NCBI RefSeq assembly: GCF_003317055.1
Contig: NZ_QNRX01000001.1
Span: forward strand, 93,641-125,640
Direction of reading: 5' to 3'
Source of the DNA: Alkalibaculum bacchi
GTDB taxonomy: Bacteria; Bacillota; Clostridia; Eubacteriales; Alkalibacteraceae
Length of the DNA: 32,000 nt
Positions 108 through 30,740 of the stretch are shown piece by piece; the first letter of the stretch is position 1, and every line of letters begins with the position of its first letter. The notes under the pieces are model-generated. The model was not told the DNA's origin and did not search any database. It worked only from the letters and a program-made list of their open reading frames with translations. The position numbers were made by a program, and so were the translations under genes.

Positions 108-305
108 AACGAGGTGGTCAGGTGGTCAGCAAAACCGTGGCCACCAATGGTGGCTATTATGGCGGAACGGTGAGACACCGTTCCCTACCTCTTCTAGCCT
201 ATAGACGAGTTTTTCCACTTTCCACCTTTAACTCTACACATCATGCTTTTCCCATCTAACTGTCCAACTAAAAGATTTCCGCTTTCCGCATTCAGCTTTC
301 AGCTA
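108..305 (-). repeat. Mosaic intergenic element (heptamer GCnGAAA words, octamer GACCACCT words, hairpins), inverted relative to copies at 3579 and 19211
   Basis: GGTGGTCAGGTGGTCAGC lies at 113-130. The hairpins are GCCACC-aat-GGTGGC and GGAACGGTG-aga-CACCGTTCC. A degenerate CTAGCCtataGACGAG+T5 hairpin and TTTCCGCTTTCCGCATTCAGCTTTCAGC (276-305) follow, abutting the sbcC-like stop. Confidence 0.7.
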
Positions 306-306
306 A

Positions 307-2433
307 TTACAATTTTATTATTTGAAAATCTTCCGTATATTTACTCATTATTTCCATCTCTCTTCTCTGAGAAGTAAAGATGATGATCTGCCTATTAGAT
401 GATTTTTTTATAATATATTTTAGTACATTAGACAATCGATTTTCGTCGTATTGAATAAAGGTTTCATCTAATAACACGGGAAAGGTGGTACTGCTTATAA
501 ATTCATTTAATCCCAATCGAAAGGCAAAATAAATTTGATCCATAGTACCTGAACTAAGTTTATTTAAGTCTATAAATTGATGATATATAGGGTCTTCAAC
601 TTTTATTTCTAAATCTTTAGATACTTTAACTACTTTATATTTTTCTGTAATCTCTCCTACAATTTTGCCGAGAAGTCTGTTTAACTCTGGTGCAAATTCA
701 TTGTGAATTTCTGCTGAAAGTTTTTGAATGGTATCCATAGCTAATTGTAAGGCGTCTTGTTTTCCTTGAAGCTTTTCTAATTCTCTTTCATGGTAATGAA
801 TATCATTTTCTACATCTGAAAGATCAACTAATTCATCTAAAATACTCTCAACACTTCCTTGAAGTTTAGATTTCTTCAAATTCATATCATTGATTTCTTT
901 ATCTTTTGCATTTTTCTTAAGTACTAATGCATCTAGATCTAATTCTACCTTGAACTGTGCATATTGAGAGTATTCTAAAGCTTTTGCCTGCCATTTATCT
1001 AGTTCTTTTAAGGGAATAAGGGTCTCTAATAATATGGTGCTGTTTTCTAATTGTTTCTCTAGTGCTTCTACATCCCTTTTACTTTTCAAATGGGCTTCAT
1101 ATGCTTCAATACTTACAACTTTATTCTTTTGGAGAAGTTTTCTTACCTCTAAATCAAGGCGTTCTATCTTGCTTTTATAATCATCAATGGTTTCATTAAA
1201 CTCTTTTGTCTTTTGTCTTTCAAAAACGAACTCTTCACCTACAGCCTTTCTCTGCTCTTCGTATTGCCTGCCATAATCTGAGGTCTTTTTATAAAAGTAA
1301 ATAACAAAGAAAATAAAGATAAGAAGAGTGTAAAAAAGAGGATGAAGAATACTACCCAGAAGACCGCAAATACTTGCTATACTGCTTAAGATCATAAATC
1401 TTTTGCTTTGATTCTGTTTTTCTTTTAAAGAATCCACTCTTTGTTGATTTTGTTCATCTTTTATCTCTGTTTTATGGGTACCTTTTTTAGAGATCATATC
1501 CTCTACATGCTTTTCTAATATTTCAATTTCCGTCCGCATGCCCTTTATGCGATCATATTCTTCTTCTGAAACCTCTTCATAGGAGATTTTAGAGATTTTT
1601 TTTAGAATTTCATTATTTTCTTTTAATTTTGATTCATATTCTTGCACTTTGCATAATGCTTCATAGGACTGACCGGATAAAATATTCTTATGATACTCTT
1701 CCCTCTCTATTATTGCTTTTTGAATACGATCTTCTATTTTGTTGATTTCTTCCGTGAGCTCTTCTACCTTTATCATATTAGATCGTATTTTATCTTTATC
1801 TTCTTGAAGGCTTTTAATATGATATTTTACTTTATAAATAGGCGAGTCTTTTCTTCTTTCCGTTCCAATCTCATTATAGCTATCATTTAAACTCTTTAAT
1901 GCCTTCTGAACAGATAGATCTCCCTTGCTTTCTCCTAAATTAGCAAGATAGTCTTTTAACTCTTCAGATAGCTCTTTGCTAGTTCTACATCCTAGTTGAG
2001 AGATGCTCACAGTATTATTGTAAATTCTCCTATTCATCATACTCTCCTCAAAGGGTGCATACAGTTTTATTGCAGAATCGTAGTAAAATTCCTTGCTAAT
2101 ATCTTCACCTGTTCCCTCATCATAGAGCACTACTTTATCTTTGCCTTTTAGAAGATTTCTCTCTATTCGTACCTCTCTGCAATCTTCTTCATAAATCAGA
2201 ATGCCTTCATAAGAACTAGAAAACATGGGCAAGTATTTTTCATAATCAGGATTATAGGTTCTACGGCTTTTATAATCTTTATAAAAACCAAAGAACATAG
2301 CCTCAATAAACTTATGTACAGTGGATTTTCCAGCTTCATTTTCTCCATATATAATATTAATTCCTGGTTTTAGTGAAATCTTTTTATTTTGGTACTTGCC
2401 AAAAGAAGTAATGATTAATTCTTTTATATACAC
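307..2433 (-). CDS. SbcC/YhaN-like AAA ATPase (DNA repair, Rad50/SMC-like) with a central transmembrane hairpin
   Basis: The N-terminal Walker A is GENEAGKST. Long charged coiled-coil stretches are present. The hydrophobic segment is FMILSSIASICGLLGSILHPLFYTLLIFIFFVIYFY. The C-terminal signature/Walker B region reads LSSGTMDQIYFAFRL...PVLLDETF. It overlaps the upstream phosphoesterase gene by 10 nt. Confidence 0.8.
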   Translation of the reverse strand: MYIKELIITSFGKYQNKKISLKPGINIIYGENEAGKSTVHKFIEAMFFGFYKDYKSRRTYNPDYEKYLPMFSSSYEGILIYEEDCREVRIERNLLKGKDKVVLYDEGTGEDISKEFYYDSAIKLYAPFEESMMNRRIYNNTVSISQLGCRTSKELSEELKDYLANLGESKGDLSVQKALKSLNDSYNEIGTERRKDSPIYKVKYHIKSLQEDKDKIRSNMIKVEELTEEINKIEDRIQKAIIEREEYHKNILSGQSYEALCKVQEYESKLKENNEILKKISKISYEEVSEEEYDRIKGMRTEIEILEKHVEDMISKKGTHKTEIKDEQNQQRVDSLKEKQNQSKRFMILSSIASICGLLGSILHPLFYTLLIFIFFVIYFYKKTSDYGRQYEEQRKAVGEEFVFERQKTKEFNETIDDYKSKIERLDLEVRKLLQKNKVVSIEAYEAHLKSKRDVEALEKQLENSTILLETLIPLKELDKWQAKALEYSQYAQFKVELDLDALVLKKNAKDKEINDMNLKKSKLQGSVESILDELVDLSDVENDIHYHERELEKLQGKQDALQLAMDTIQKLSAEIHNEFAPELNRLLGKIVGEITEKYKVVKVSKDLEIKVEDPIYHQFIDLNKLSSGTMDQIYFAFRLGLNEFISSTTFPVLLDETFIQYDENRLSNVLKYIIKKSSNRQIIIFTSQRREMEIMSKYTEDFQIIKL

Positions 2434-3512
2434 GGTTCACTCTCCTTTAAAAGAGCTTCTAAACCCAAATACAAGGCATCTTTGTTTTTTTGTTCCTCTA
2501 AATCCAATCTCTTCATTTCGTCTATGAACATCCCAATAATATTATCTTTATTTTCTAAATAGATTTTCTCTAAATCGTAATCTGGTCTAGTACTATCATT
2601 GATTTCTACATAGTAAAATTCTTTAGTGGCCTCTTCCATCAATTGTTCTATATTAATATCTGAATCTCTAAATCCCTTCAAATGGAGCCTATAAAGGTTT
2701 TTTCTATCTTTAAAACTACAGAGTTTATAAAGGATTTCTTCATACGTCATCTCAGGGGTACATTCTACTTCTTTTATGAAGAATTCTCTTTTAGCCATAG
2801 GCACGAATTGTACCTGCAACTTATGAACGCCTATTACTCCTAATAACACCCCTCGATCTCCAACTTCTCCAAAATCTAAAGGTTCCGGGCTACCTGCATA
2901 CCTCATATTTTTTTGTATTTCATCTTGTTTATGTATATGACCTAAAGCAATGTACTGAAAAGGAAATGTAGCCAAATGATCTTTATCAATTGGCAGATAT
3001 TGTGAGTTCTTATTGTACACATCTCCATGAAGCAAAAGAATGTTCTCTTGAGACTCATCTAATTCACCTAAGTCAAAGGTAAAGGGCTCTTCTATATACT
3101 TGGTCGTCCAGGCAAAGCCGTATACATTTGTCTGAAGCTCTGGAAAACTAACCTTTGTCAGCTTCCTAGTTTTAAAGACTGTAACATTAGGATTCCATTC
3201 TATTTTTTTGTAAGGAGACCTGTCCCAATAATAATCATGATTTCCAGGGGAAATAATCACATTTGTCTCAGGAATACTCTTAAAAGCCTCATTTATTCTC
3301 TTTACTTGACCTATGGTGATGAGATGATCTTCAAACAAATCTCCACTGATGAATAAGAAATTTGTACTTTCCTTCTTTGCTAATTGAATAATATCAAAGA
3401 AAGTATCCCACATTTCCTCCCGTCGATTTTTTGCAATATCTCTTGGAAAACTAGCATGATTAAAAGTAGAACCCAAATGTAAGTCTGCCGTGTGAATAAA
3501 TTTAATGGTCAT
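2424..3512 (-). CDS. SbcD/YhaO-like metallophosphoesterase (DNA repair exonuclease)
   Basis: MTIKFIHTADLHLG, GDLFE, GNHD and GHIH are calcineurin-like phosphoesterase motifs. The start is trimmed to the ATG at 3512, which is preceded by GGAGG. The longer ORF up to 3665 runs into repeat DNA. Confidence 0.8.
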   Translation of the reverse strand: MTIKFIHTADLHLGSTFNHASFPRDIAKNRREEMWDTFFDIIQLAKKESTNFLFISGDLFEDHLITIGQVKRINEAFKSIPETNVIISPGNHDYYWDRSPYKKIEWNPNVTVFKTRKLTKVSFPELQTNVYGFAWTTKYIEEPFTFDLGELDESQENILLLHGDVYNKNSQYLPIDKDHLATFPFQYIALGHIHKQDEIQKNMRYAGSPEPLDFGEVGDRGVLLGVIGVHKLQVQFVPMAKREFFIKEVECTPEMTYEEILYKLCSFKDRKNLYRLHLKGFRDSDINIEQLMEEATKEFYYVEINDSTRPDYDLEKIYLENKDNIIGMFIDEMKRLDLEEQKNKDALYLGLEALLKESEPCI

Positions 3513-3578
3513 GTCTGCCTCCGTTCTAGTTATACGTTCTATTGGTATGTGAAAAAGGAAAAAATTATTCGCTAATGA

Positions 3579-3772
3579 GATGATGGTTGGACGGTTGGAC
3601 GGGAAAAAGCAGAAAGCTGAATGCTGAAAGCGGAAAACTCGCCTTTGGGCGAGAAAAGGACCCATGCTTATGATAATTTAATTCCTAGATCCTTCGTCGC
3701 AAGCTCCTCAGGATGACCGTGTAGTAGCTAGAGGCTCAATAGAGATTCGCAGACGATTGCTTTCTAGCTACT
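3579..3772 (+). repeat. Mosaic intergenic element copy F
   Basis: GGTTGGACGGTTGGAC comes first. Four heptamers follow (GCAGAAA GCTGAAT GCTGAAA GCGGAAA, 3609-3636). The CTCGCC-tttg-GGCGAG hairpin lies at 3638-3653. The mini-core GATCCTTCGTCGCAAGCTCCTCAGGATGACCGTGTAG lies at 3688-3724. A 10-bp hairpin AGTAGCTAGA/TCTAGCTACT spans 3723-3772. Confidence 0.8.
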
Positions 3773-3782
3773 TCACAATTGT

Positions 3783-4963: not shown

Positions 4964-4984
4964 TTGTTCTCCTTTCGTCAATAA

Positions 4985-5029
4985 GCGGAAAGCAGAAAGC
5001 AAAAAGCCGAAAAAGCAATTTGCTTTCTG
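4985..5029 (+). repeat. Heptamer word array (GCGGAAA GCAGAAA GCAAAAA GCCGAAAAA) with a CAGAAAGCA/TGCTTTCTG stem
   Basis: Period-7 units were read directly, between the MetH-like stop and the tsaE start. Confidence 0.7.
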
Positions 5030-7302: not shown

Positions 7303-7308
7303 TAAAAA

Positions 7309-7400
7309 ATGTGCCTTGGTTGCTAGTCATTAGTTTCTAGTCACTAGCACTAATGTATTTCTTTAGGGTCTAAATGCTTCATTTACGCTTAAGTGTCTAA
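7309..7400 (+). repeat. Mosaic intergenic element copy H
   Basis: The heptamers TAGTCAT TAGTTTC TAGTCAC TAGCACT lie at 7324-7351. GTATTTCTTTAGGGTC follows, related to the GTATTCCTTTTGGGTC module. Confidence 0.7.
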
Positions 7401-8077: not shown

Positions 8078-8126
8078 AATAAAGCCTCCTTAAATTATAA
8101 TTGGAATAATTACTCTCATGTGGATA

Positions 8127-8259
8127 AGAAAGCGCCTTCGGCACTTTAGTCGTTCATCTTTAATCCTTAGCATTCGGGCATTCCTTTTGGGTCAAAATCC
8201 TTCGCTTGCGCTCAGGATGACTAGGAAAGAGCTAGGTCAAAAGTGGGACTTTCGTATTC
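8127..8259 (+). repeat. Mosaic intergenic element copy A (full core)
   Basis: The AAAGCGCC-ttc-GGCACTTT hairpin lies at 8129-8147. The core spans 8176-8259 and reads GGGCATTCCTTTTGGGTCAAAATCCTTCGCTTGCGCTCAGGATGACTAGGAAAGAGCTAGGTCAAAAGTGGGACTTTCGTATTC. Confidence 0.85.
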
Positions 8260-8261: not shown

Positions 8262-8445
8262 TAAAAAACCAGCTCTCAATTACTCAAGGGCTGGTTTTAT
8301 ACTAACTTAATATTAACGTAAGTCAAATATTAATCCTCTCTCATCCAGACTTTACTGTCGGTCTTGGAATTGCACCAAGTCAACCTAAAAAGGCTCGCGG
8401 ACTTTACCGCCGGTCGGGAATTGCACCCTGCCCTGAGAATTTAAT
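8262..8445 (-). ncRNA. FMN (RFN) riboswitch with intrinsic terminator
   Basis: The minus strand reads TTCTCAGGGCAGGGTGCAATTCCCGACCGGCGGTAAAGTCCGCGAGCC...GGTTGACTTGGTGCAATTCCAAGACCGACAGTAAAGTCTGGATGAGAGAG, which matches the RFN consensus. A CCAGCCCTT...AGAGCTGG hairpin plus a T-run follows at 8262-8296. Confidence 0.9.
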
Positions 8446-8491: not shown

Positions 8492-8500
8492 TGCCTTTTT

Positions 8501-8599
8501 AACTATAGTCGAACGGTTGTTTTTTAACAGTAGTTAAACCATTGTTGAACAGTCGCTAGACAGTAGTCAAACAATGGCTTAACCATAGTTTAACTATCG
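8501..8599 (+). repeat. 11-nt periodic array (9 units, consensus about TTnAACnrTnG)
   Basis: The units are aactatagtcg aacggttgttt tttaacagtag ttaaaccattg ttgaacagtcg ctagacagtag tcaaacaatgg cttaaccatag tttaactatcg. The array lies between the tex stop and the ribU promoter. Confidence 0.8.
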
Positions 8600-8604
8600 T
8601 CCCA

Positions 8605-10758: not shown

Positions 10759-10776
10759 ATAGTAAAACTCCTTTTT

Positions 10777-10891
10777 TAGTCTCTAGTCAATAGTCATTAG
10801 TCACTAGCTTGCATGTATTCCTTTTGAGTCTTATATGCTACCTTCGGGTAACTAAGTGCTAGAGACTAGGGTCTAATGACTAAAGACTAGC
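10777..10891 (+). repeat. Mosaic intergenic element copy I (long hairpin with heptamer arms)
   Basis: The left arm is TAGTCTC TAGTCAA TAGTCAT TAGTCAC TAGC (10777-10808). The right arm GTGCTAGAGACTAGGGTCTAATGACTAAAGACTAGC (10856-10891) is its imperfect complement. The loop carries GTATTCCTTTTGAGTC and GCTACCttcgGGTAAC. Confidence 0.8.
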
Positions 10892-11978
10892 TTTGAGGTA
10901 TTCATTTATAAATAGCTCCAAATCCCCGTCCATAACAGCTTGCACATTTCCCGTTTCTGCATTCGTGCGATGGTCCTTGACCATGCTGTACGGATGGAAT
11001 ACATAGGACCTGATTTGATTTCCCCAAGCAATTTGTCCGTATTCTCCTTGGATATCTTCTATTTTTTCTTTGTGTTCTCTCTCTTTGATTTCTACAAGCT
11101 TACTTAATAGCATTTTCATAGCTGTCTCTCTATTTTGAATCTGAGAGCGTTCGTTTTGGCATTGAACGACGATGCCTGTAGGGATATGAGTAATTCGAAT
11201 AGCCGATTCCGTTTTATTGACGTGTTGACCACCTGCCCCACTAGATCTATAGGTATCGATTCTTAAATCATCGGTATTTATCTCTATATTACTATCTTCT
11301 TCTATTTGAGGTGTAATATCTACAGAGGCAAAGGATGTATGCCTTCTACCGGAAGCATCAAAAGGAGAAATTCGAACTAATCGATGTACACCTTTTTCAC
11401 TTTTTAAATACCCATAGGCATTATTCCCCTCTATTGATACTGTTACACTTTTTATTCCAGCTTCATCCCCTGGTTGATAATCTAAAGTTGTAACTTTAAA
11501 GCCTTTCTTTTCCGCCCATCTCAAGTACATTCTAAGGAGCATTTCAGCCCAGTCGTGAGACTCTGTCCCTCCAGCGCCAGGGTGTATGGAGAATATCACA
11601 TCATTAGCATCGTACTCACCACTTAATAGAGTTTCTAGATTAAATTCTTCAATAGCTTTTTCTAGTTCGTCCATAGAAGATTTCAAATCTTCCTCTAAAT
11701 CCTTATCTTCGCTTTCTTCTATTAATTCTATTAGTAAGCTAATATCCTCTAATTTGCTCTCAAGTCCAGCAACTTTTTCCCATTTATCTTTAAGAGCGCT
11801 AGATTGCTTTAGTATTTTTTTTGCATTTTCCTGATCATTCCAAAAGTCAGGAGCATTCATTTTTTGCTCTAACTCATCAATTTCAAATTTTATCTTTGAC
11901 AAGTCAAAGTGAATCCCTCAATTCTTTAAATATTTCATTTGCTTCTTTATATCTACTTTTATACTCCTGTATATCCAT
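10880..11978 (-). CDS. prfB: Peptide chain release factor 2, requiring a programmed +1 frameshift
   Basis: ORF0 reads [24 protein letters not shown] and ends at the in-frame TGA 11906-11904. The +1 frame continues as [14 protein letters not shown]... and carries SPF and [11 protein letters not shown] motifs. Confidence 0.9.
11903..11921 (-). promoter_or_regulatory. prfB +1 frameshift site (SD-like GAGGGA, then CTT TGA C)
   Basis: The minus strand reads TTGAGGGATTCACTTTGAC. This is the classical RF2 autoregulatory shift site. Confidence 0.85.
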
Positions 11979-11991
11979 ACTTTTTCACCTC

Positions 11992-14499: not shown

Positions 14500-14635
14500 A
14501 TTTACACCTCTTTGTTAGGATTATGTTTTAGTTGGATTTGTAAGTTTTTTATTGCTTATCCATACTGCAATAATCTTAATGAATTCAATTCTAAGCCTGC
14601 AGCTATTTATGCAATTTTCTGTTCAGATAGTATAT

Positions 14636-14672
14636 CATAAAAAAGACTTGTTTACATTACAAGTCTTTTTTC
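14636..14672 (-). terminator. Intrinsic terminator overlapping the stop codon of the 14657-16012 gene
   Basis: AAGACTTGT-aatgtaa-ACAAGTCTT forms the stem, with T-runs on both sides. Confidence 0.65.
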
Positions 14673-17268: not shown

Positions 17269-17333
17269 GTAAATCTCCTTATATATTAAAGCCGGCATAC
17301 TTTTATGTAATTTTGTTTAAACGATTTTGTGTA

Positions 17334-17414
17334 TTAGCACCATTTGACGCCAGCGCCGCCAGCTACAAATAAAGTCATGATAACCAAAAGTACTTGGATT
17401 ATTTTAGCCTTCAT
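17334..17414 (-). CDS. Candidate 26-aa hydrophobic micro-protein (MKAKIIQVLLVIMTLFVAGGAGVKWC)
   Basis: The ATG at 17414 is preceded by AAGGGGG with a 7-nt spacing. The product has a single predicted TM helix. It lies on the same strand directly upstream of the HD-GYP operon and falls below the ORF-track size cut-off. Confidence 0.45.
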   Translation of the reverse strand: MKAKIIQVLLVIMTLFVAGGAGVKWC

Positions 17415-17506
17415 GTAAATGCCCCCTTATATAAATAATGGGACTGTTTTCCGCTAAATAAAACAATCTAATCCGCTTCGCTCAAAAGTATGCCAGCCTT
17501 AATTTC

Positions 17507-18136: not shown

Positions 18137-18378
18137 TTCAACAACTCCTAAATTATAGATATATATAATGATACCATTAAAATACCATATAATGATATAA
18201 AAAAACACAAATCATTAAAAAATATTCTAATAAATATACAGCTATATGCAGTCAAATAGAAAATTTAAGTTTATACTATATGAATGATAGTTGAACGATG
18301 ATAAATAGTAGTTAGGTGATTACTTAAAATATTGAAAACAGGTACGTTTAGATTTTTATAGTTAGTGCATTTCACAAG

Positions 18379-18491
18379 AAAGTGCCATGGGGTGTATTAG
18401 TCTCTAGCGTATTCCTTTTGGGTCAAGATTCTTCGCTTGTGCTCAGGATGACTGGGTAGGAGCCCATGTCAAAAGTAGGACTTTCCTATTA
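18379..18491 (+). repeat. Mosaic intergenic element copy B (full core)
   Basis: AAAGTGCCATGG comes first. The core then reads GTATTCCTTTTGGGTCAAGATTCTTCGCTTGTGCTCAGGATGACTGGGTAGGAGCCCATGTCAAAAGTAGGACTTTCCTATTA. Confidence 0.85.
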
Positions 18492-18500
18492 CATTACATC

Positions 18501-18531
18501 AAAAAAGAGCAAAGCGAAAAGCTTTGCCCTT
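18501..18531 (-). terminator. Intrinsic terminator of hpf
   Basis: The minus strand reads GGGCAAAGC-ttttc-GCTTTGCTC followed by TTTTTT. Confidence 0.8.
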
Positions 18532-18547
18532 TAACATTTTGAACTAT

Positions 18548-19075: not shown

Positions 19076-19210
19076 AATAACAACTCCTTTAAGAAAATAT
19101 AGTGATTAGTTAGTATTATTATTATACCCCTAAAGAATATGACAAAACATTTTTGTTTGTAGTAAATACTTCATTATATAAAAGGAAATTATTGGTAAAT
19201 TTAAAAATTA

Positions 19211-19328
19211 GGTGGACAGGTAGTCTGAAAAAAAGCTGAATGCGGAAAGCGGAAAGCGGAAAAAAACTCGCTGTAGGCGAGGTTGTGTAGGATCCTTCGT
19301 CGCTTCGCTCCTCAGGATGACTATGTAG
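19211..19328 (+). repeat. Mosaic intergenic element copy G, co-linear with copy F
   Basis: GGTGGACAGGTAGTCTG is followed by the heptamers GCTGAAT GCGGAAA GCGGAAA GCGGAAA (19235-19262). The CTCGCtgtagGCGAG hairpin comes next. The mini-core is GATCCTTCGTCGCTTCGCTCCTCAGGATGACTATGTAG (19291-19328). Confidence 0.8.
19267..19281 (-). terminator. Hairpin plus T7 run, a possible terminator for the upstream ncRNA transcript
   Basis: The minus strand reads CTCGC-ctaca-GCGAG followed by TTTTTTT (plus A-run 19260-19266). The stem is short (5 bp). Confidence 0.4.
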
Positions 19329-19390
19329 AAAATTATATTATAGTAGAAATTAGTACCTTAATGATAACTTTAAAATCGTTTTTTAGATAC

Positions 19391-19445
19391 TTAAACAATT
19401 GTTTAACTACCGTTTAACCATTGCTCAACAATCGTTTAACAACTG
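19391..19445 (+). repeat. 11-nt periodic array (5 units)
   Basis: The units are ttaaacaattg tttaactaccg tttaaccattg ctcaacaatcg tttaacaactg. The first unit is identical to the last unit of the 30544 array. Confidence 0.8.
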
Positions 19446-19484
19446 TTTTTACTTACAACTTAAAGCTTAAAACGTAGAACTATT

Positions 19485-19692
19485 ACCGCCTTAGCTGACC
19501 TGGTCTTTGCCCCCACACTCGCCAGCTGGAAGTTTAGCTAGGGTTCGCCTTCACAACTCCTTCTCTCAATTTCTTAATTGGCTGGTCTTACATCTAAGCC
19601 GCACCATGCTCAGTATGCTCTTTTGGCTTACCTTACGTGGATCGTTTTGCCTGCGACTGGCATCGATTTTCAACCACAGACCTAAGGCGTCC
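19485..19692 (-). ncRNA. Candidate structured ncRNA of about 205 nt, possibly raiA-motif class
   Basis: It is a GC-rich island in AT-rich DNA. Nested helices can be drawn on the minus strand. The closing stem pairs CGCCTTAG (RNA 5' end, plus 19682-19689) with CTAAGGCG (3' end, plus 19487-19494). Internal stems are TGTGG/CCACG, ATCG/CGAT, TGCC/GGCA, TAAGCC/GGCTTA, CCAGC/GCTGG, CAATT/AATTG and GGAGTT/AACTtCC. A consensus promoter lies immediately upstream, and the element sits upstream of hpf/raiA. Confidence 0.55.
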
Positions 19693-19727: not shown

Positions 19728-20064
19728 ATGAAAGTGCCAAGGCACTTTATCGATCAGCAACCAGCCGCCAGTCACCTGTACTCTCGGGCTAAGCTTTGCG
19801 GGTCAAAGATCCTTCGCTAGCGCTCTAGGATGACTCGGCAGTTGCTAGGGCCAAAAGCGTATGTTTCCTAGTATAGAAAGCATATGCCACCAAAGGTAGC
19901 TTGTCTGTTTTGCTGACCACGTGGGAGTAATACCCGATTTATCTAGCCCGAAGAATAAGAGAAATCGAGTGGCATTACCCCTGTCAAGGTGGGCAGGTTT
20001 GTAGCGACTAGAAGGAGCTAGAAACCCGCAACCTACGACAGACCACCTGACCACCTGACCACCT
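19728..20064 (+). repeat. Composite mosaic element copy C
   Basis: The AAAGTGCCaaGGCACTTT hairpin lies at 19730-19747. The heptamers are AGCAACC AGCCGCC AGTCACC. The core variant is GGGTCAAAGATCCTTCGCTAGCGCTCTAGGATGACTCGGCAGTTGCTAGGGCCAAAAGCG. A GCCACCAAAGGTAGC module follows, then an extended imperfect hairpin of about 90 nt (19911-19999). The element ends with GACCACCT x3 (20041-20064). Confidence 0.75.
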
Positions 20065-21121: not shown

Positions 21122-21140
21122 AGAAGAAGCTTCAATATTT

Positions 21141-21203
21141 TAGCCATCAGCCACCAGCCACTAGTGCTCTAAGCCAGGGGCTTGGGTCAAAAGTAACACC
21201 TGC
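21141..21203 (+). repeat. Mosaic element copy E, lacking the CCTTCGC..CAGGATGAC insert ('empty site')
   Basis: The heptamers AGCCATC AGCCACC AGCCACT AGTGCTC come first. CCAGGGGCTTGGGTCAAAAGTAACACC follows, with a single GGTCAAAAG where copies A-D have two flanking an insert of about 45 nt. Confidence 0.7.
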
Positions 21204-21244: not shown

Positions 21245-21296
21245 AAACAGAGACAAAGGGGACAGATTTATAAATCTGTCCCCTTTGTCTCTGTTT
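21245..21296. terminator. 52-nt perfect palindrome, a bidirectional terminator between convergent fba and the radical SAM gene
   Basis: AAACAGAGACAAAGGGGACAGATTTA and its exact reverse complement TAAATCTGTCCCCTTTGTCTCTGTTT abut each other. A/T runs sit at the stem base. Confidence 0.6.
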
Positions 21297-22273: not shown

Positions 22274-22316
22274 TTATAACACAGTAAAGTGCCTTTGGCA
22301 CTTTACTGTGTTATAA
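22274..22316. repeat. 20-bp perfect hairpin containing the AAAGTGCC/GGCACTTT module
   Basis: TTATAACACAGTAAAGTGCC-ttt-GGCACTTTACTGTGTTATAA ends 25 nt upstream of the radical SAM start codon. Confidence 0.8.
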
Positions 22317-23683: not shown

Positions 23684-23899
23684 AAAATTTCACCTCAGAT
23701 GTGATTATTACTATTCGCTTTTATTATAATATATAGAAATCTAAACCTCTACTAATTAAATCCTACAAAATAGTCTATAATATTTAATAACTCGTAAAAA
23801 ATTTGATTCTTTATAAATTATCTAATCACCTTTTCGGGAATCTTATAGAAATTTTTACCTTAATATACTATAATTATTTTATGGGAGGAGGTAATTTAT

Positions 23900-25280: not shown

Positions 25281-25399
25281 CTAGTGACTAGCCATTAACC
25301 GCTAGTCACTAGTATCATGGTATTCCTCTAGGGTCCTTTTGCTATCAAAGGTAGCATTACGGTTTTTGGTTTTAAGATTTAGCTTACCACCTTATGTAG
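25281..25399 (+). repeat. Mosaic intergenic element copy J
   Basis: The 12-bp perfect hairpin CTAGTGACTAGC-cattaacc-GCTAGTCACTAG begins right after the PP2C stop. GTATTCCTCTAGGGTC and GCTATCAAAGGTAGC follow. Then GGTTTTAAGATTTAGCTTACCACCTTATGTAG parallels 30657-30685. Confidence 0.75.
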
Positions 25400-25402
25400 A
25401 AC

Positions 25403-25451: not shown

Positions 25452-25795
25452 TTGTACTCAATCTCCATGCAATTTCCTTCCTGAAGCTAATCTTCCAAGG
25501 TGTGGTTTTATTAAAGATCAATCTATACTTTTAAGTGGTCACGCGTTACCTCTAATCCACTCCATAATGTAAACAGTTTAGACTACTTCCTAATTCCGTT
25601 TTAGGTTCCTTAATAATCCTTAAAGATTATTGGAGGATTCATCTGCTTATTTACCTACTGCTATTTTATAGATTAGCTTAAAAGCTTTGATTATCTTTTT
25701 ATGAAACCTGTTACCTTGTACTGATAATATACCCTATTTTTTGAGGATTAAACACAATATTTTATTTTTGGAGTTAAAAACATCTACAAGGTTTT

Positions 25796-25968
25796 AGCCA
25801 TCAGCTGCCAGCTATTAGTCACTAGTCTTTAGTCCCTAGCATTAGGGGATTCCTTTTGGGTCAAGATCCCTCGCTTGCGCTCAGGATGACCGGGTAAGAG
25901 CCAATGTTAAAAGCAGAGATTTCCTATTAAAAAACACTAGCGACTCTTGACTAGCCGCTAGTGACTAA
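25796..25968 (+). repeat. Mosaic intergenic element copy D (full core with inverted heptamer arms)
   Basis: Seven heptamers span 25796-25844 (AGCCATC AGCTGCC AGCTATT AGTCACT AGTCTTT AGTCCCT AGCATTA). The core is GGGGATTCCTTTTGGGTCAAGATCCCTCGCTTGCGCTCAGGATGACCGGGTAAGAGCCAATGTTAAAAGCAGAGATTTCCTATTA. The inverted arm is CACTAGCGACTCTTGACTAGCCGCTAGTGACTA (25936-25968). Confidence 0.85.
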
Positions 25969-25973
25969 CGCGC

Positions 25974-26942
25974 CTAAGGCGCGTACTTAATGCCATTCCA
26001 GTATACTGTGTGTTCTACCTCTGCTTCTTCTGGGAACTCTACATCTTTTAAGGCCCACTTTTTAAATTCTTCAAAGCCAGTTCTGTCTACAATGTATCCG
26101 ATGTGCTCTTTTCCACCTGGGGCATCTTTAGCAATATACTCTGTAACGTAATCATAAGTGTTTAATATGATTTTTACGATACTTTCTTCATCAATCCATT
26201 TAACAAAGTTTTCTCCTTGGCGAGGGTTTTTCTTGCCTGTTCTACCTAGAAGAGTTAATCTATAATATTTTTTATCACTGCGAGTCCATGCACCTGTTGG
26301 GCAATTTAAAACGCACTCACCACAACCTATACATTTTTCATGATTTCTTTCTACCTTATAATTCACCGTTTCTAAAGCGTTTACGGATTTCTTTAGGCAT
26401 TTTTTCACGCAAGCACCGCAGTTGACACATCGGTCCTTGTCATATTGAGGCTCAGTCATTCCGATAATTCCAAAATCATGCATTCGCACTTTTGCACAAT
26501 CATTATGGCAACCTGTTAGGGCAATCTTAAAGTGTAAATCATTTGGAAATATGGCTTTTTCAATTCGCTTAGCAAATGCAGATGTATTATAACATCCATA
26601 GGGACAGACATTATTTCCGATACAAGCTGTTACATTACGAGTTCCTGAAGCATTATAACCCTCTCCAGGATTTTCTTGATTAATATCCAATCCTTCAATA
26701 ATTGGTTGTAATAGCTCGTTGACTTTTGGCATATCTTGATATGCAATACCAGGTACTTCAAAGCCCTGTCTCGATGTAATATGTACCGTTCCATTTCCGT
26801 ATGTTTCTGCAATATTTTGTATCATAGACAAAAATTTAGCATCTAAATGACCACCAGGAACTCGAATTCGGGATGCAGTGATTCCCCTATGTTTTGTTAC
26901 ACGAAAAGCGTTCTTTTTTAATTGTTTTGTATTCATATCCAT
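25974..26942 (-). CDS. asrC: Anaerobic sulfite reductase subunit C (siroheme/4Fe-4S)
   Basis: The 322-aa product has a nitrite/sulfite reductase fold with an inserted ferredoxin (CVNCGACVKKC, CIGCGECVLNC). It is third in an asrA-asrB-asrC order. Confidence 0.85.
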   Translation of the reverse strand: MDMNTKQLKKNAFRVTKHRGITASRIRVPGGHLDAKFLSMIQNIAETYGNGTVHITSRQGFEVPGIAYQDMPKVNELLQPIIEGLDINQENPGEGYNASGTRNVTACIGNNVCPYGCYNTSAFAKRIEKAIFPNDLHFKIALTGCHNDCAKVRMHDFGIIGMTEPQYDKDRCVNCGACVKKCLKKSVNALETVNYKVERNHEKCIGCGECVLNCPTGAWTRSDKKYYRLTLLGRTGKKNPRQGENFVKWIDEESIVKIILNTYDYVTEYIAKDAPGGKEHIGYIVDRTGFEEFKKWALKDVEFPEEAEVEHTVYWNGIKYAP

Positions 26943-26957
26943 ACTAGCTTCTCCCCC

Positions 26958-27749
26958 CTAATCCAATAATTGGCGACCTTTTGTATAATTAAATACTGGG
27001 CCATCTAAACACACATACACGTCATCGATTTTACAGTGACCACATTTACCTAGACCACAACACATTTTTCTTTCTTGTGAAATCCAAATGTTTTCTTCTT
27101 TAAATCCGATATCTAGTAGACCTAATGTTGAAAACTTCATCATCGGAGGCGGTCCTACGACGACAGCTACTGCTTCTTCTATATTTTCAAGTTGTAGTTT
27201 TGGAATATATTCTGTAACCATGCCTACATTGCAGATAAATCCTTCTTCAGCACAATCTACAGTCAAAATAACGTCCATAGTTTTTTCCCATTTTTCAAAA
27301 TCTTTTGTAAACAAAATATCATCAGGGCTTTTAAATCCTGCAATGAAAGTAAGAGACTTAACTTCATCTTTATGATCGCTAAAATAATCTATTACCCCTC
27401 TAATAGGAGAAACACCTGTACCACCAGCTACAACAACTAAATCTTTTCCCTTATACTCTTCAATATCAAAACCATTTCCGTAAGGTCCTCGTAAAAACAA
27501 TTTGTCTCCTACATAATGCTCAAAAATTTCATCTGTTACTTTACCTACTCGGCGTACGGTCAAATCTACAGTTCCTTCTCCTATCCCACTTACAGAGATT
27601 GGGGCTTCTCCAAACTTAGGAATAGAGACTTCAAAAAACTGTCCTGGTTTTACAGGTCCTGTATAGGTCATTCTAAAGGTGTATTCAATATCTGTATGCT
27701 TAATAACTTCTTTTATTTCTGATTGAAATGGAATATATTCATTTTGCAT
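26958..27749 (-). CDS. asrB: Anaerobic sulfite reductase subunit B (FAD/NAD and 2Fe-2S)
   Basis: The 263-aa product has an FNR-like flavin/NAD fold (GGTGVSP) and a C-terminal CCGLGKCGHCK...C cluster. Confidence 0.85.
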   Translation of the reverse strand: MQNEYIPFQSEIKEVIKHTDIEYTFRMTYTGPVKPGQFFEVSIPKFGEAPISVSGIGEGTVDLTVRRVGKVTDEIFEHYVGDKLFLRGPYGNGFDIEEYKGKDLVVVAGGTGVSPIRGVIDYFSDHKDEVKSLTFIAGFKSPDDILFTKDFEKWEKTMDVILTVDCAEEGFICNVGMVTEYIPKLQLENIEEAVAVVVGPPPMMKFSTLGLLDIGFKEENIWISQERKMCCGLGKCGHCKIDDVYVCLDGPVFNYTKGRQLLD

Positions 27750-28759: not shown

Positions 28760-28851
28760 GTTTTACACCTCTTTCTTTTAATTTAAAGTCCATTTAGGAC
28801 TACTTGCTCACTAGGTTTGTTTTATATGTTTGTTTTTTATTTTTCAAGTAT

Positions 28852-28893
28852 AGTATATAATTCTAGAACAATGTTCACAGTGATATTTATCAC
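28852..28893 (-). promoter_or_regulatory. Crp/Fnr-type box plus -10 element upstream of asrA
   Basis: GTGATatttATCAC at 28880-28893 fits TGTGA-N6-TCACA / TGAT-N4-ATCA. On the minus strand TATACT lies at 28857-28852. The box centre is about 41.5 nt upstream of the implied start, a class II geometry. Confidence 0.45.
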
Positions 28894-28958
28894 GAACTTA
28901 ATATTTTTTATTTTACCACTAATTTGCAACTATCAAACACAATTTATCTATTATTTTA

Positions 28959-29756
28959 CTATTGTTCAAGAGCTTTTCCGACTTTTTTCCCTGCTATTAT
29001 ATAATAAGGAATGGCTAAAAATAAAATTCCGCCTATCATATTCCCTATAGTTACAACACCAATATTGTACAAGTATCCCCCTAAAGAAATTGCAGTTCCA
29101 TGAGGAGCTAATAGCCCAATAGTTAAAAGAGTCATATTAGCGATGCTGTGTTCAAACCCTGATGTTATGAATGCAAATAAACAGAGAAAAATCATAATCA
29201 ATTTGCCGCTCTCTGATTTACATCTAGTACTGCTCCAAATAGCTAAGCATACTAATATATTACATAGAACTCCTTTTAACAGAAGGGAAATCAGCGGAAT
29301 GCTCATTTTTGTTGCTGACATTGCAGCAACAAACTCGCCAATTGGTCCAGTACTAATACCTGCCCCCCAGGATAGAATAGCTAAAACAATTGAACCTGCC
29401 CAATTGCCAAGGTAGCATACGATCCAAACTTTTATAGTGTCTTTCCAAGAAACCGTGCCCATTAACGCACCTGTGCCTATGACGAAATTATTTCCCGTAA
29501 ACAATTCTGCCCCTGCAATTACTACTAGACTTAAGGCAATGGAAAAAGACACCCCCATAATGATTTTAGTATAGGGCCCACCTTGAAGCATCCCCCCAAT
29601 AGAATGAATGAGCAATACGCCAAACCCTACATAGGCTCCACCTAACATAGATGCAATAAAATAGCCCAAAAGATTACCTTTCATAAAACTGACTTTTGCT
29701 TTTGCTGCCTTTGAAACTAGTTTTAAATCCTCTTCATACATTTTAGCTGTCCTCAC
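28959..29756 (-). CDS. Formate/nitrite transporter family channel (likely the hydrosulfide/nitrite-type FNT linked to asrABC)
   Basis: The 265-aa product has 6 TM segments and FNT motifs (GAELFTGN, SGFEHSIANM). It lies immediately upstream of asrABC on the same strand. Confidence 0.8.
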   Translation of the reverse strand: MRTAKMYEEDLKLVSKAAKAKVSFMKGNLLGYFIASMLGGAYVGFGVLLIHSIGGMLQGGPYTKIIMGVSFSIALSLVVIAGAELFTGNNFVIGTGALMGTVSWKDTIKVWIVCYLGNWAGSIVLAILSWGAGISTGPIGEFVAAMSATKMSIPLISLLLKGVLCNILVCLAIWSSTRCKSESGKLIMIFLCLFAFITSGFEHSIANMTLLTIGLLAPHGTAISLGGYLYNIGVVTIGNMIGGILFLAIPYYIIAGKKVGKALEQ

Positions 29757-29802
29757 AATCTATGTTTGTCTTTTATTTATCAACAATAGTATAGTACATA
29801 AA

Positions 29803-29838
29803 TAAAAAAGGAACCGTGATAAAAGTCACGGTTCCTTA
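29803..29838 (-). terminator. Intrinsic terminator overlapping the stop codon of the Crp/Fnr gene
   Basis: The minus strand reads AAGGAACCGTGA-ctttta-TCACGGTTCCTT followed by a T-run. The stem is 12 bp. Confidence 0.8.
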
Positions 29839-30530
29839 AAATAACTTGCTAATTTTTCACGATCGTAAACAATAAATTTCTTGTCTTCTATTCCCACGAG
29901 ACCATGTTCCTTTAAAATTTTTATCTGTCTTGAAACCGTTTCTCTTTGGGATCCTAACATATCGGCGAGATATGTAATACTTAAGTCCATATCAATACAA
30001 ATGCCTTTCTCACAAGCTACTCCGTAATCTCCAGACAATTTCCACAATTTAGCTGCAATTCGTTTATCTGCTCGTACAGAATTAGATGTATTTTTAAGCT
30101 GGCGATATAAGCGTCTAGTCTTTAATGACAGAGATCGCAAGACTCCCTTTGTCAAATTAAAGTCTTGGCTCATAATATGTAAAAACTTGTCTTTGTTCCA
30201 GCACAAAATCTCACTAGGCTCAAAGGCATCACAACTTATAGAAGATGGCAAACCCTGGAGTACTACTTCATTTATCATCTTTCCTTTTCCCAAAATAAAG
30301 ATCACCTTTTTCTCACCCTGAGAACTCATCTTATAAAGAGAGACCAAACCACTTTTCACAAGATATAGACTAGAACACTCGTCTTTATCTTTGAAAATGT
30401 GTTCATTTTTCTTATACTGACGAACACTAAAACAATCAGCAAGAGTATCTAAAGTTTCAGATTTAGCCTCTCTAAATACTTCAATACCCTTAAGGATTTC
30501 TATTTTATCTGCACTGGTCCACTTTTCCAT
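29826..30530 (-). CDS. Crp/Fnr family transcriptional regulator
   Basis: The 234-aa product has an N-terminal cNMP-binding-like beta-roll and a C-terminal HTH (ITYLADMLGSQRETVSRQIKILKEHG). No N-terminal Cys cluster is present. Confidence 0.85.
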   Translation of the reverse strand: MEKWTSADKIEILKGIEVFREAKSETLDTLADCFSVRQYKKNEHIFKDKDECSSLYLVKSGLVSLYKMSSQGEKKVIFILGKGKMINEVVLQGLPSSISCDAFEPSEILCWNKDKFLHIMSQDFNLTKGVLRSLSLKTRRLYRQLKNTSNSVRADKRIAAKLWKLSGDYGVACEKGICIDMDLSITYLADMLGSQRETVSRQIKILKEHGLVGIEDKKFIVYDREKLASYFKEP

Positions 30531-30543
30531 TTTACACCTCTTT

Positions 30544-30620
30544 TTGAACAGTAGTTAAACGATCTTGAAACCATAGTTGAACAATGGTTGAGCAATAGTT
30601 AAACGATGGTTAAACAATTG
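30544..30620 (+). repeat. 11-nt periodic array (7 units) directly upstream of the Crp/Fnr start codon
   Basis: The units are ttgaacagtag ttaaacgatct tgaaaccatag ttgaacaatgg ttgagcaatag ttaaacgatgg ttaaacaattg. The array ends 14 nt from the ATG at 30530. Confidence 0.8.
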
Positions 30621-30629
30621 TATTAGACT

Positions 30630-30740
30630 CTCGCCTACGGCGAGTTCAACTTTAAAGGTTTTAAAATTTTGCTTACCACCTTACCACCTTACTACCTTAC
30701 TACCTTACCACCTGACCACCTGACTACCTGACTACCTTAA
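30630..30740 (+). repeat. CTCGCC-tac-GGCGAG hairpin plus an 8-unit octamer array
   Basis: The octamers at 30672-30735 are CTTACCAC x2, CTTACTAC x2, CTTACCAC, CTGACCAC, CTGACTAC x2. Only positions 3 (T/G) and 6 (C/T) vary. Confidence 0.85.

Follow-up and report, generated by a model that had tools for sequence, protein, structure and literature searches.

The intergenic DNA of the analysed stretch of the Alkalibaculum bacchi genome (the window, 32,000 nucleotides) is rich in short repeats, which are probably several related families of non-autonomous miniature repeats of a REP/BIME-like kind, mobilised in trans and expanded by slippage. On the best reading they belong to the general class that also holds REP/BIME, NIME, BOX and MITE sequences, and they combine hairpins with arrays of 7-, 8- or 11-nt words. 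An earlier note on this DNA had described a set of five modules shared by 17 loci. The set is real: at least one of the modules is present at all 17 loci when the coordinates are checked, and the modules together cover about 1.86 kb, or about one third of the non-coding DNA of a window in which only housekeeping genes are found.

Pattern counts were compared with the expectation from shuffled sequence. Module 1 (AAAGTGCC-N3-GGCACTTT) occurs exactly at 22286 and with one mismatch at 8129 (0.13 expected), with variants having an N2 loop (19733), a decayed copy (18381) and a GCGCC form (25966-25984). The CTCGCC hairpin of module 2 is found three times (3638, 19267 and 30630; 0.01 expected). For module 3, TRF gave 7-nt word arrays at 276, 3606, 4983, 7323, 10784, 19232 and 21142, 8-nt arrays at 112, 3585, 20041 and 30672, and 11-nt arrays at 8496, 19394 and 30544. 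Module 4 (GTATTCCTTTTGGGTC) is present six times at up to two mismatches as compared to 0.23 expected, and the core, module 5, has four full copies (0 expected) and two variants (3688-3717 and 19291-19321). These counts exclude a chance origin. The modules are not quite as pervasive as had been claimed, since they occur in 12 of the 16 gaps longer than 100 bp rather than in nearly every one; the gaps at 14500-14656, 17299-17506, 23684-23899 and 28760-28958, each upstream of a gene start, lack them.

The description of the elements as a non-coding, non-autonomous system with shared modules was borne out. There is no coding capacity inside the elements, no transposase or integrase among the ORFs of the window, as noted before, and no transposase in about 400 kb of related sequence. 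Among the covariance models of Rfam 15, only those for raiA, FMN and a tRNA pass in the window, the modules being unmatched even at E<=1, and a literature search found no published description that matches them. The elements match no named family in these comparisons. Their kind, mosaic miniature repeats with hairpins, is already known.

Composite families and their loci

The modules of the window make up miniature repeats of two or three composite families. The main one of these, composite A, is about 120-190 nt long and reads on the gene-sense strand TAGGAAAGTCC-TACTTTTGACCC...-[GTCATCCTGAGCGnAGCGAAGGATC hairpin]-TTGACCCAAAAGGAATAC-...-(GTGACTA)n-AAAGTGCCnnnGGCACTTTCTTG, with a terminator-like hairpin of its own at the far end. 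Its ends, TAGGAAAGTCC ... GGCACTTTCTTG, are terminal inverted repeats that match at about 10 of 12 positions, and other elements have inverted word arrays as arms. H1 stems are either GTGCC/GGCAC or GCGCC/GGCGC. Copies 94-130 nt in length are 64-83% identical to one another. In the second family a variant of the core hairpin is combined with a CTCGCC hairpin and T-run that has the look of a functional terminator; word arrays of CCGCTTT and GACCACCT come after it.

The earlier note also held that the modules recombine in different orders and orientations. Their order in the composites is largely fixed and common to several genomes, and the strand bias is strong, with all six module 4 copies and all six cores of the window on the + strand; the alternative orientations that do exist are mainly inverted word arrays or occur in other strains and genomes. 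In 19 of the 23 core copies from Alkalibaculum, GTCATCC lies on the strand that carries most of the coding sequence of the locus, with positive GC skew, and no copy runs antisense to the genes on both its sides. Most genes here point the way replication moves, so that a replication-linked mechanism and transcription-linked selection are not separable as sources of this bias.

Composite A has the same orientation as the upstream gene, and 13 of its 14 canonical copies begin 8-16 nt past a hairpin with a T-rich tail. Among these preceding hairpins are the terminators of hpf, asrC and the FMN riboswitch, as well as the hairpin that ends an earlier copy; a rough control on them gave -12.0 versus -5.7 kcal/mol. 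No fixed short target, such as the tetra- or pentanucleotide 3' of which miniature IS200/IS605 elements insert, was discernible in the 14 copies, the flank being T-rich and located after a hairpin. No consistent direct repeats flank the copies, comparison of filled and empty sites recovered no target-site duplication, and no conserved structure beyond the short hairpins was found on either strand. Composite A probably inserts a few bases past a hairpin of the intrinsic-terminator type, in the direction of the terminated transcript. Its far-end hairpin would re-form the insertion target, which would explain tandem and nested copies.

Full copies of composite A are found on the - strand at 8126..8259, between the FMN-riboswitch terminator (8266-8300) and the ribU ribosome-binding site, at 18376..18492, beginning 16 nt after the hpf terminator (18504-18532), and at 25793..25984, where an inverted heptamer hairpin with T6 (25935-25963) is likely the asrC terminator. 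The asrC stop codon is located in the loop of an H1-like hairpin of the latter locus, ACGCGCC-TTAG-GCGCGT. A diverged copy on the - strand (19728-19876, locus 19728..19900) is preceded on that strand by a GCTACC..GGTGGC hairpin (19886-19900). A half composite A at 7308..7370 (- strand), composed of module 4, a heptamer array and half of an H1 hairpin, is found downstream of the ribU terminator and the SASP stop codon; the sister species has no element there. At 10776..10891 (- strand), inverted TAGTCNC heptamer arms flank module 4 and a GCTACC/GGTAAC hairpin. This element encodes the final codons and the stop codon of prfB, so that both the prfB and asrC stop codons are inside repeat sequence, in agreement with the earlier description; the sister species has a 42-nt spacer and no element at the prfB site.

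The second family is represented on the - strand in the tsaB/sbcD gap (3585..3717), which is intergenic because sbcD actually begins at the ATG near 3509. On that strand the core variant GTCATCCTGAGGAGC..GACGAAGGATC (3688-3717) comes first, followed by the CTCGCC hairpin and T-run (3638-3653), (CNGCTTT)4 (3606-3637) and, last, (GTCCAACC)2 (3585-3602). In the gap between the raiA RNA and hpf (19210..19328, - strand), the core variant is followed by CTCGCCTACAGCGAG with T7, which is terminator-like (19267-19281), then by (CCGCTTT)4 and 8-mers.

The mosaic locus 3' of the sbcC stop codon (108..306, + strand) holds several modules: (AGGTGGTC)2 at 112-129, a GCCACC/GGTGGC hairpin at 137-157, a GTAG-tagged REP-like hairpin, GGAACGGTG..CACCGTTCC-CTAC, at 164-188, TTTCCAC words at 211-226 and a (TTTCCGC/TTTCAGC)4 array at 276-304. 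Its hairpin GGAACGGT..ACCGTTCCCTAC is also present in a Lutispora locus (L012). Further + strand loci are a solitary AAAGCNG heptamer array between a metH-like gene and tsaE (4983..5012), a (GACCACCT)3 array upstream of fba (20039..20064), CAGCCAC heptamers with a GGGTCAAAAG fragment after the fba stop codon (21139..21200), and a heptamer array with module 4 and a GCTATC/GGTAGC hairpin 2 nt past the stop codon of a PP2C-type phosphatase gene (25281..25362). The remaining loci have no assigned strand: a quasi-palindromic array of the 11-nt word AACnaTnGTTn directly 3' of the tex stop codon (8496..8604), an 11-nt word array immediately downstream of the raiA RNA (19384..19448), a solitary extended H1 palindrome, TATAACACAGTAAAGTGCC-TTT-GGCACTTTACTGTGTTATA (22275..22315), and a locus of three arrays or hairpins between a tRNA and a crp/fnr-type gene (30544..30739), namely an 11-nt array (30544-30620), a CTCGCC hairpin (30628-30644) and an (AGGTRGTM)8.5 array (30672-30739).

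Recurrence and turnover

The modules are not confined to the window. Two further Alkalibaculum genomes, an A. bacchi MAG and that of an uncultured species of the genus, have the same modules with the same words and order, and Lutispora and other Clostridia have part of them. Metagenome assemblies break at the elements, which fits dispersed repeats. The presence/absence polymorphism that had been raised earlier was found as well, as element content differs among strains whose flanking genes are 96-99.9% identical. Related strains lack the copy at 18376..18492 or have other sequence in its place: five contigs with flanks of 96-97% identity carry 30-47 nt where the window has the 118-nt element after hpf. 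In the strain comparison the hpf-raiA spacer has a different set of modules, in which the core is inverted. Other strains have a different module cassette in place of the 122 nt that follow fba, with fba itself 99.9% identical, and strain alleles upstream of this gene part exactly at the 8-mer array (20039..20064). In the sister species, which shares the gene order, the prfB-tex and ribU-SASP elements are absent, and the site after the FMN-riboswitch terminator holds a different repeat; this site is empty in Alkalibaculum sp. M08DMB.

The differences between strains and the absences in the sister species show that turnover is fast. Gain, loss and replacement of this kind supports mobility or rapid turnover. 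Filled and empty alleles differ by replacement, without a clean insertion; the replaced appearance of the polymorphic sites means that recombination between diverged lineages may play as large a part as transposition.

A different and unlikely explanation is that the elements are immobile RNA-level parts, selected in neighbouring transcripts as terminators, 3'-end stabilisers or leaders, which are alike through a common function or binding protein. Nearly all copies are co-oriented with the upstream gene, the hairpins at 19267-19281 (raiA RNA) and 25935-25963 (asrC) score as intrinsic terminators at the right place, and an 8-mer word is presumably complementary to the 3' end of 16S rRNA. The 11-mer array after tex is found at the matching site in the sister species too, where it gives a -35-like hexamer, and with its position kept in two species it could have a function. 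However, selection for such roles agrees poorly with elements that close strains and the sister species lack or have replaced although their genes are the same, and with conservation of structure being limited to short hairpins on either strand. One copy is located in a riboswitch leader, where an added terminator-like hairpin would bring harm and no benefit. Moreover, the core has no orientation preference to genes in viral contigs, where 26 copies point the same way as the two genes beside them and 25 point against both. Under the preferred reading of miniature repeats mobilised in trans, copies would be kept mainly at gene 3' ends since they are tolerated there, and some would have been co-opted as terminators.

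Relation to known repeat systems

Mosaic intergenic repeats composed of hairpins and other motifs are an established kind, for example the BIMEs of E. coli, the NIMEs of Neisseria and the pneumococcal BOX elements. The view of the earlier note that the density and combinatorial design of the elements go beyond a single REP/MITE family was not supported as a mark of something unlike REP/MITE biology; REPIN clusters have been described too (PMC3116915, PMC2817692). Similar to REP, REPIN and BIME sequences, the elements are dense, short, extragenic hairpins in mosaics with other motifs, mostly at gene 3' ends, with inverted doublets as longer hairpins outside Alkalibaculum, tandem clusters and some members that would act as terminators or stabilisers (PMC2817692, PMC3116915, PMC3733652). 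Like REPs, which are extragenic imperfect palindromes of 20-40 nt in many copies, the core hairpin, H1 and the CTCGCC hairpin recur between genes, and as in BIME-type mosaics hairpins and motifs are joined in two or three fixed-order composites whose order is common to several genomes. Unlike in REP systems, 7-, 8- and 11-nt word arrays are integral to the elements, the core of Alkalibaculum is single and strongly strand-biased instead of forming doublets, and the host is a Firmicute, outside the groups covered by the REP surveys that were compared.

Still less probable than the RNA-level explanation is a REP/BIME system driven by a RAYT and corresponding directly to those of E. coli and Pseudomonas. 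The short extragenic imperfect palindromes and the BIME-like mosaic layout (PMC2817692) agree with it, and the module at 164-188 is a textbook GTAG-tagged hairpin. Outside Alkalibaculum, inverted core doublets with 20-45 nt spacers are common in Syntrophomonadaceae and Clostridiaceae MAGs and occur in viral contigs, where 38 of 161 copies are partnered. The published REP definition requires a conserved GTAG or GTGG 0-2 nt 5' of the hairpin (PMC6006769), whereas the core hairpin has neither and only the minor module at 164-188 is tagged. Neither a RAYT nor an IS200-type gene was found in the window, in about 400 kb of related loci or between inverted pairs. Furthermore, REP families are normally species-specific, whereas the core hairpin is nearly identical across several phyla and viral contigs.

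BOX elements have the composition boxA-boxB(n)-boxC with a boxB of 45 nt, and NIME units are 50-150 nt long. Like these, the elements are modular, non-coding and strain-polymorphic, with a variable internal unit between conserved modules and no transposase in cis; they differ in showing no sequence similarity and in having variable units of 7-11 nt from several word families. The STRR sequences of cyanobacteria are heptamer arrays, and Nostoc has very small dispersed repeats. Intergenic tandem heptanucleotide arrays and sharp-edged hairpins of about 20-28 nt that nest in other repeats, without a known transposase, are common to these and the present elements, but the phylum and the words differ. 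A CRISPR array was rejected, as words of 7-11 nt follow one another head to tail with nothing between them, instead of forming regular repeat-spacer units of 24-48 nt with unique spacers.

Bacterial class C group II introns insert after intrinsic terminators. The directional insertion a few bases past a terminator stem-loop, in the orientation of the gene that ends there, is similar, but the elements are 120-190 nt long without intron domains, reverse transcriptase or ORF, and with no intron match in Rfam this class was ruled out. The terminal inverted repeats of composite A resemble those of DDE-derived MITEs, from which the elements differ by having no target-site duplication around the copies. 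Miniature IS200/IS605 elements have end hairpins, cause no duplication and are oriented according to replication (lagging-strand template); the coding-strand bias of the core copies is in line with this, and equally fits co-orientation with transcription. The copying enzyme would be supplied in trans from another part of the genome; the most plausible candidate is a Y1/HUH transposase of the IS200/IS605-RAYT type that works on hairpins in single-stranded DNA. The word arrays may lengthen and shorten via replication slippage or stuttered copying beside hairpins, a proposal for their origin that is a conjecture.

That the elements are ordinary intergenic sequence, with unrelated terminators and chance microsatellites, or assembly artefacts is refuted by the recurrence statistics: low-GC intergenic DNA is full of hairpins and low-scoring tandem repeats and TRF also gives weak A/T-rich arrays within genes, but neither accounts for pattern counts far above the shuffled expectation or for the identity among the 94-130 nt copies, and the source is a 299-kb contig of an isolate genome whose elements recur in independent assemblies.

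The 28-nt core hairpin outside Alkalibaculum

The core hairpin, TGTCATYCTGAGCGnAGCGAAGRATCT, is not specific to the Alkalibaculum lineage, to judge from its matches in more than 120 viral contigs and several phyla. Copies outside the lineage have sharp edges, compensatory changes in the stem and an otherwise nearly unchanged sequence. All pairs of the stem triplet are formed in 217 of 219 units, with six pair types (shuffled mean 152, maximum 163). At the inner stem pair, 201 of these units have G-C, 17 have A-T and one has a mismatch. The unit starts at T|GTCAT, with T at -1 in 144 of 161 viral-contig units. The tip of the hairpin is the sequence d(GCGNAGC), an unusually stable DNA mini-hairpin, which would suit a single-stranded-DNA substrate and in that respect also a RAYT.

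Tentatively, and with more doubt than confidence, the 28-nt hairpin might be an undescribed and near-universal miniature mobile DNA of Bacillota, Cyanobacteriota, Bacteroidota, other phyla and viruses that seeds lineage-specific mosaics. The Alkalibaculum mosaic would in that case be a directional, terminator-seeking and target-renewing form, with word arrays made by stuttering copying without a known transposase. Doublets of the 28-nt hairpin are also found on plasmids of Planktothrix and Gloeothece.

Repeat modules and the genes around them

The earlier note had described five kinds of recurring module: the H1 hairpin, the CTCGCC hairpin, arrays of 7-, 8- or 11-nt words, module 4 and the core hairpin. 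The coordinates of all loci were verified, and pattern searches of the window gave counts above those expected from shuffled sequence. There are 4 copies of the core (0 expected), 6 of module 4 (GTATTCCTTTTGGGTC; 0.23 expected), 3 of the CTCGCC hairpin (0.01 expected) and 2 of the AAAGTGCC hairpin (0.13 expected), the last with variants besides. TRF recovered the 7-, 8- and 11-nt arrays at the positions named; with a repeat finder the arrays fall into families, and a 94-nt composite appears at 8174, 18405 and 25843. Summed, the repeat loci cover about 1.86 kb, i.e. about 6% of the window and, from the sum over mapped gaps and loci, roughly one third of its non-coding DNA (about 5.6 kb). The repeat system is real and unusually dense, if somewhat less pervasive than the proposed presence in nearly every gap above 100 bp: 12 of the 16 such gaps hold modules and four are empty, namely those upstream of the starts of secA, the HD-GYP regulator gene, asrA and the divergent hydrolase/PP2C pair.

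The window matches contig RXYD01000002.1 of A. bacchi GCA_008086585.1 at 100% identity. It has a G+C content of 35%, and its minus strand holds most genes and positive GC skew. The genes are housekeeping genes: sbcCD, tsaBE, a metH-like gene, genes for an alpha/beta SASP and a RibU-type ECF component behind an FMN riboswitch, tex, prfB, secA, genes for a DUF5317 protein and an HD-GYP regulator, hpf with a raiA RNA upstream, fba, mnmL, genes for a hydrolase and a PP2C-type phosphatase, asrABC, and genes for a formate/nitrite transporter, a crp/fnr regulator, a tRNA and a penicillin-binding protein. As stated earlier, no transposase or integrase is among them. Rfam located the raiA-motif RNA (19486-19690), the FMN riboswitch (8329-8444, upstream of the RibU-type gene) and the single tRNA (30786-30858), all on the minus strand. 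Repeat loci lie on either side of the raiA RNA (19210-19448 and 19728-20064). Between fba and mnmL there is a perfect palindrome with 31-nt arms (21245-21296), a terminator-like hairpin; the palindrome of other strains is related to it but not the same.

The stop codons of prfB and asrC both lie inside repeat sequence: that of asrC in the loop of an H1-like hairpin, that of prfB, with the last codons, within a heptamer array. The repeats thus rewrite gene ends, supplying the C-termini and stops of both proteins. In the sister species, an uncultured Alkalibaculum sp. with a 91% identical RibU and the same gene order as the window, prfB is six codons longer, the window's version being shorter because of the repeat. 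The mechanically found prfB ORF (10880-11990) starts at model position 19, and the public gene call has 365 amino acids; this discrepancy is consistent with the programmed +1 frameshift that prfB usually carries. The arrays at 3585-3637 are intergenic because the true start of sbcD lies near 3509.

Organisation and placement of composite A

The modules do not shuffle freely, contrary to the proposal: all 6 copies of module 4 and all 6 cores lie on the plus strand, opposite to the genes, so that the gene-sense strand of the core reads GTCATCC... The main composite is composite A, an element of about 120-190 nt found in full at 8126-8259, 18376-18492, 19728-19876 and 25793-25984, and as halves at 7308-7370, 10776-10891 and 25281-25362. 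On its sense strand a TAGGAAAGTCC end is followed by TACTTTTGACCC, a short variable stretch and the core hairpin, and then by TTGACCCAAAAGGAATAC, CCTAATGCTA, a (GTGACTA)n array and a hairpin AAAGTGCCnnnGGCACTTTCTTG; the ends are mutual inverted repeats of about 10 nt. The second arrangement, family 2 (3585-3717 and 19210-19328), has the sense-strand order core variant, CTCGCC hairpin with T-run, (CCGCTTT)n and (GWCYACCT)n, and the order is identical at L004, a related locus outside the window. At L004 and at another such locus, L001, 8-mer arrays form inverted arms that flank a CTCGCC-core-CTCGCC centre. The 11-nt words (AACnaTnGTTn) are individually near-palindromes.

Composite A nearly always follows a terminator-type hairpin. 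In 13 of 14 canonical copies the sequence read upstream on the sense strand contains a hairpin with a T-rich tail, and the element starts 8-16 nt after it. These hairpins are all unlike in sequence and include the terminators of hpf, asrC and the FMN-riboswitch expression platform as well as terminators in five other loci; where composite A occurs in tandem, the upstream hairpin is provided by the end of the preceding element. A rough folding control gave -12.0 kcal/mol upstream of composite A as against -5.7 in random intergenic windows. Of 23 Alkalibaculum copies, 19 have their sense strand on the majority coding strand of their locus; the remaining 4 are co-oriented with the adjacent upstream gene, and none of the 23 is antisense to both neighbours. 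The pattern would be expected if the element selected terminator-type hairpins in one direction and restored that target with the hairpin at its own end, and it is compatible alike with a replication-linked mechanism, a transcription-linked mechanism or selection. Post-terminator placement in a single direction offers a testable handle on how tiny elements choose their sites. The repeats also appear to supply terminators, and one copy sits inside the riboswitch leader.

Two functional readings of composite A were abandoned. A structured sRNA was dropped since consensus folding of 17 copies on both strands predicts the invariant core hairpin only, with no extended structure or within-genus covariation. 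A promoter role for its two TTGACC boxes fails on wrong spacing to any -10-like hexamer, and a promoter scan showed no enrichment.

Recurrence and turnover

The modules recur outside the window. A core-pattern scan of species-representative genomes returned 42 loci, mostly in an A. bacchi MAG and the uncultured Alkalibaculum sp., the others in Clostridiaceae, Lutispora, Syntrophomonadaceae and Oscillospiraceae with single matches in other phyla. By our own pattern-complexity estimate about one chance match is expected among the 42; two, in Nannocystaceae (L016) and Bacteroidia (L024), lie inside long ORFs, lack element-like flanks and were taken as chance. The Alkalibaculum copies elsewhere have flanking modules and a module order identical to those in the window, and have in common the word families AGGTGGTC, TAGTCNC, AAAGCGG and AACAATnGTTn, plus AGTTCTA and GAAAGAG. 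Lutispora and other Clostridia share module 4 and the core, with heptamer or octamer arrays. A Syntrophomonadaceae MAG (L007, L038 and L040) has 6-7 hairpin units per 8 kb, with the T..A and C..G types on opposite strands, and a second repeat, GGCAGCGCCCCTGTCCAGAGGGCA, adjoins them.

Contigs encoding exactly the window's proteins differ in element content. Downstream of hpf, the 118-nt composite A is replaced by 30-47 nt in five contigs (flanks 96-97% identical), and the hpf-raiA spacer of these contigs carries another module set with the core variant inverted. Downstream of fba (99.9% identical), three independent assemblies have a different 122-nt cassette, composed of an H1-like hairpin, AGTTGTA heptamers and a GTCACC hairpin, and two others match the window; on the upstream side of fba, the alleles part precisely at a (GACCACCT)n array. 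No additional polymorphic contigs emerged from look-ups with tsaB, crp and tex. Since elements change between strains of 99.9% identity, they should be useful strain markers.

In the sister species the prfB-tex spacer is 42 nt long and lacks the element, and the ribU-SASP spacer lacks the half element. After its riboswitch terminator (contig L198, 3640-3960) a different repeat of about 250 nt occupies the same site as composite A in the window; its inverted arms (GGGATTCTGAG..CCTCAGAATC) are long, and it contains two TTGACCC boxes. In Alkalibaculum sp. M08DMB this site is empty (about 60 nt). None of the strain or species comparisons revealed a clean insertion with duplication, and neither target-site duplications nor a fixed target tetranucleotide could be found convincingly among the strain alleles, the flanks of 14 composite A copies and the sister-species sites. 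The polymorphic sites rather resemble replacements, often where flank identity changes, which suggests that recombination between lineages is also involved.

Most metagenome contigs with hpf, ribU or fba are shorter than 2 kb and end at or inside repeats (L044-L050, L052-L056 and L060-L064). The repeats therefore fragment assemblies of the genus and are one reason for the fragmented state of Alkalibaculum metagenome assemblies. On the metagenome contig L048 (Logan SRR26442553, 1-969) a composite A copy joins hpf to an ORF that is not its neighbour in the window and that we guess to be riboflavin-kinase/FAD-synthetase-like; the join reflects a rearrangement at the repeat or else a chimeric assembly.

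The core hairpin and relation to known repeats

The core unit GTCATYCTGAGCGnAGCGAAGRATC folds into a 5-bp stem (ATYCT/AGRAT), a GA/GA internal loop, a GC/GC stem and a loop of 3-4 nt. The Y/R positions covary (C..G in 62 units, T..A in 20, mismatched in 5). A looser pattern applied to all collected sequence yields 219 units, of which 217 have a completely paired stem triplet, with six pair types in use (shuffled control: mean 152, maximum 163 of 219); at the inner pair, 201 units have G-C, 17 have A-T and 1 is mismatched. An IMG/VR scan found exact core matches in at least 120 viral contigs. Among the matches listed, 161 viral units have sharp edges, with T at -1 in 144 and at +1 in 125 and no conservation beyond; 38 are paired with an inverted copy no more than 150 nt away, the units favour neither orientation with respect to genes, and the adjoining genes encode capsid, portal and terminase proteins. 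A collection of cultured-phage genomes gave no match to the hairpin doublet. The unit also occurs on plasmids of Planktothrix, Gloeothece, Phocaeicola and Hymenobacter. In Planktothrix agardhii (plasmid AP017994.1; L202, 1450-1700) a doublet lies within an annotated 'hypothetical protein' CDS, where three stuttered partial copies of TGTCATTCTGAG precede it and a 21-nt tandem array containing ATGACAG comes after it; similar hairpin-adjacent stutter is found in several viral contigs among the matches listed.

The well-studied mosaic hairpin repeats are those of a few Proteobacteria, Neisseria and pneumococci. Rfam gave nothing on any module at gathering thresholds or E<=1, in line with the earlier statement that no named family is recognisable. 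Full-text searches with core strings, the GCGAAGC hairpin and Alkalibaculum repeats returned only unrelated primers and papers, and literature searches found no published description for acetogenic Clostridia. The REP surveys consulted make no mention of Firmicutes or Clostridia as hosts. The further claim that density and design exceed what a single REP/MITE family would give could not be upheld, and the system belongs most naturally to the known class of mosaic hairpin repeats and calls for no new category. Among established kinds, REP/REPIN/BIME, NIME and BOX elements come nearest, with cyanobacterial STRR closest for the word arrays. Similar to REPs and BIMEs, the repeats are extragenic hairpins with mosaic organisation, 3'-end location, clusters and, outside Alkalibaculum, doublets; unlike RAYT-type REPs, the core hairpin lacks the defining GTAG/GTGG tag. 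Inverted ends are present as in MITEs, but target duplication is absent. The system goes beyond the ordinary in its directional post-terminator placement, integral tandem word arrays, turnover speed and a 28-nt hairpin that crosses phyla.

On balance we favour, with some reserve, non-autonomous hairpin repeats that are copied in trans, with word arrays shaped by slippage. Copying would act on a single-stranded-DNA hairpin, and the end hairpin of composite A would provide a new terminator-type target for further copies. One reason for leaning towards a single-stranded substrate is the tip GCGnAGC, the sequence of an unusually stable DNA mini-hairpin. Any specific mobilising enzyme would merit far less confidence than this general explanation. 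Searches by tblastn with approximate RAYT/IS200 TnpA queries found none in the related loci compared, all-against-all ORF comparison over the 42 loci gave ordinary paralogues only, and inverted hairpin pairs enclose ordinary genes with no RAYT among them. A Pfam scan of 150 ORFs beside the hairpin in viral contigs, among the matches listed, revealed no transposase or homing endonuclease. The core hairpin is almost unchanged in very distant bacteria and in viral contigs, and its stem changes are compensatory; one may ask what widespread enzyme or process could copy a sequence of 28 nt.

The word arrays have features of their own. The 8-nt word AGGTGGTC (arrays 112-129, 20039-20064 and 30672-30739) is predicted to pair at 8 of 8 positions, including one G-U, with the 3' end of 16S rRNA usual in Bacillota (GAUCACCUCC); on one strand the arrays would thus be runs of strong Shine-Dalgarno-like sites, and the opposite strand would mimic the anti-Shine-Dalgarno sequence. 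The AAAGCGG heptamer (arrays 276-304, 3606-3637, 4983-5012 and 19232-19262) contains AGCGG, which has been reported as the Chi site of Bacillus subtilis AddAB, and is near GAAGCGG, that of S. aureus; one such array adjoins sbcCD. The Chi likeness is probably a coincidence. The 11-nt array after the tex stop (8496-8604), with a period of one DNA helical turn, keeps its position in the sister species (L198, 3415-3525) with diverged words. Its words contain TTGAAC/TTAAAC, which is -35-like, and the LexA-box-like GAAC-N4-GTT, and in L198 the last word lies 17 nt upstream of a TATAGT that precedes the FMN riboswitch.
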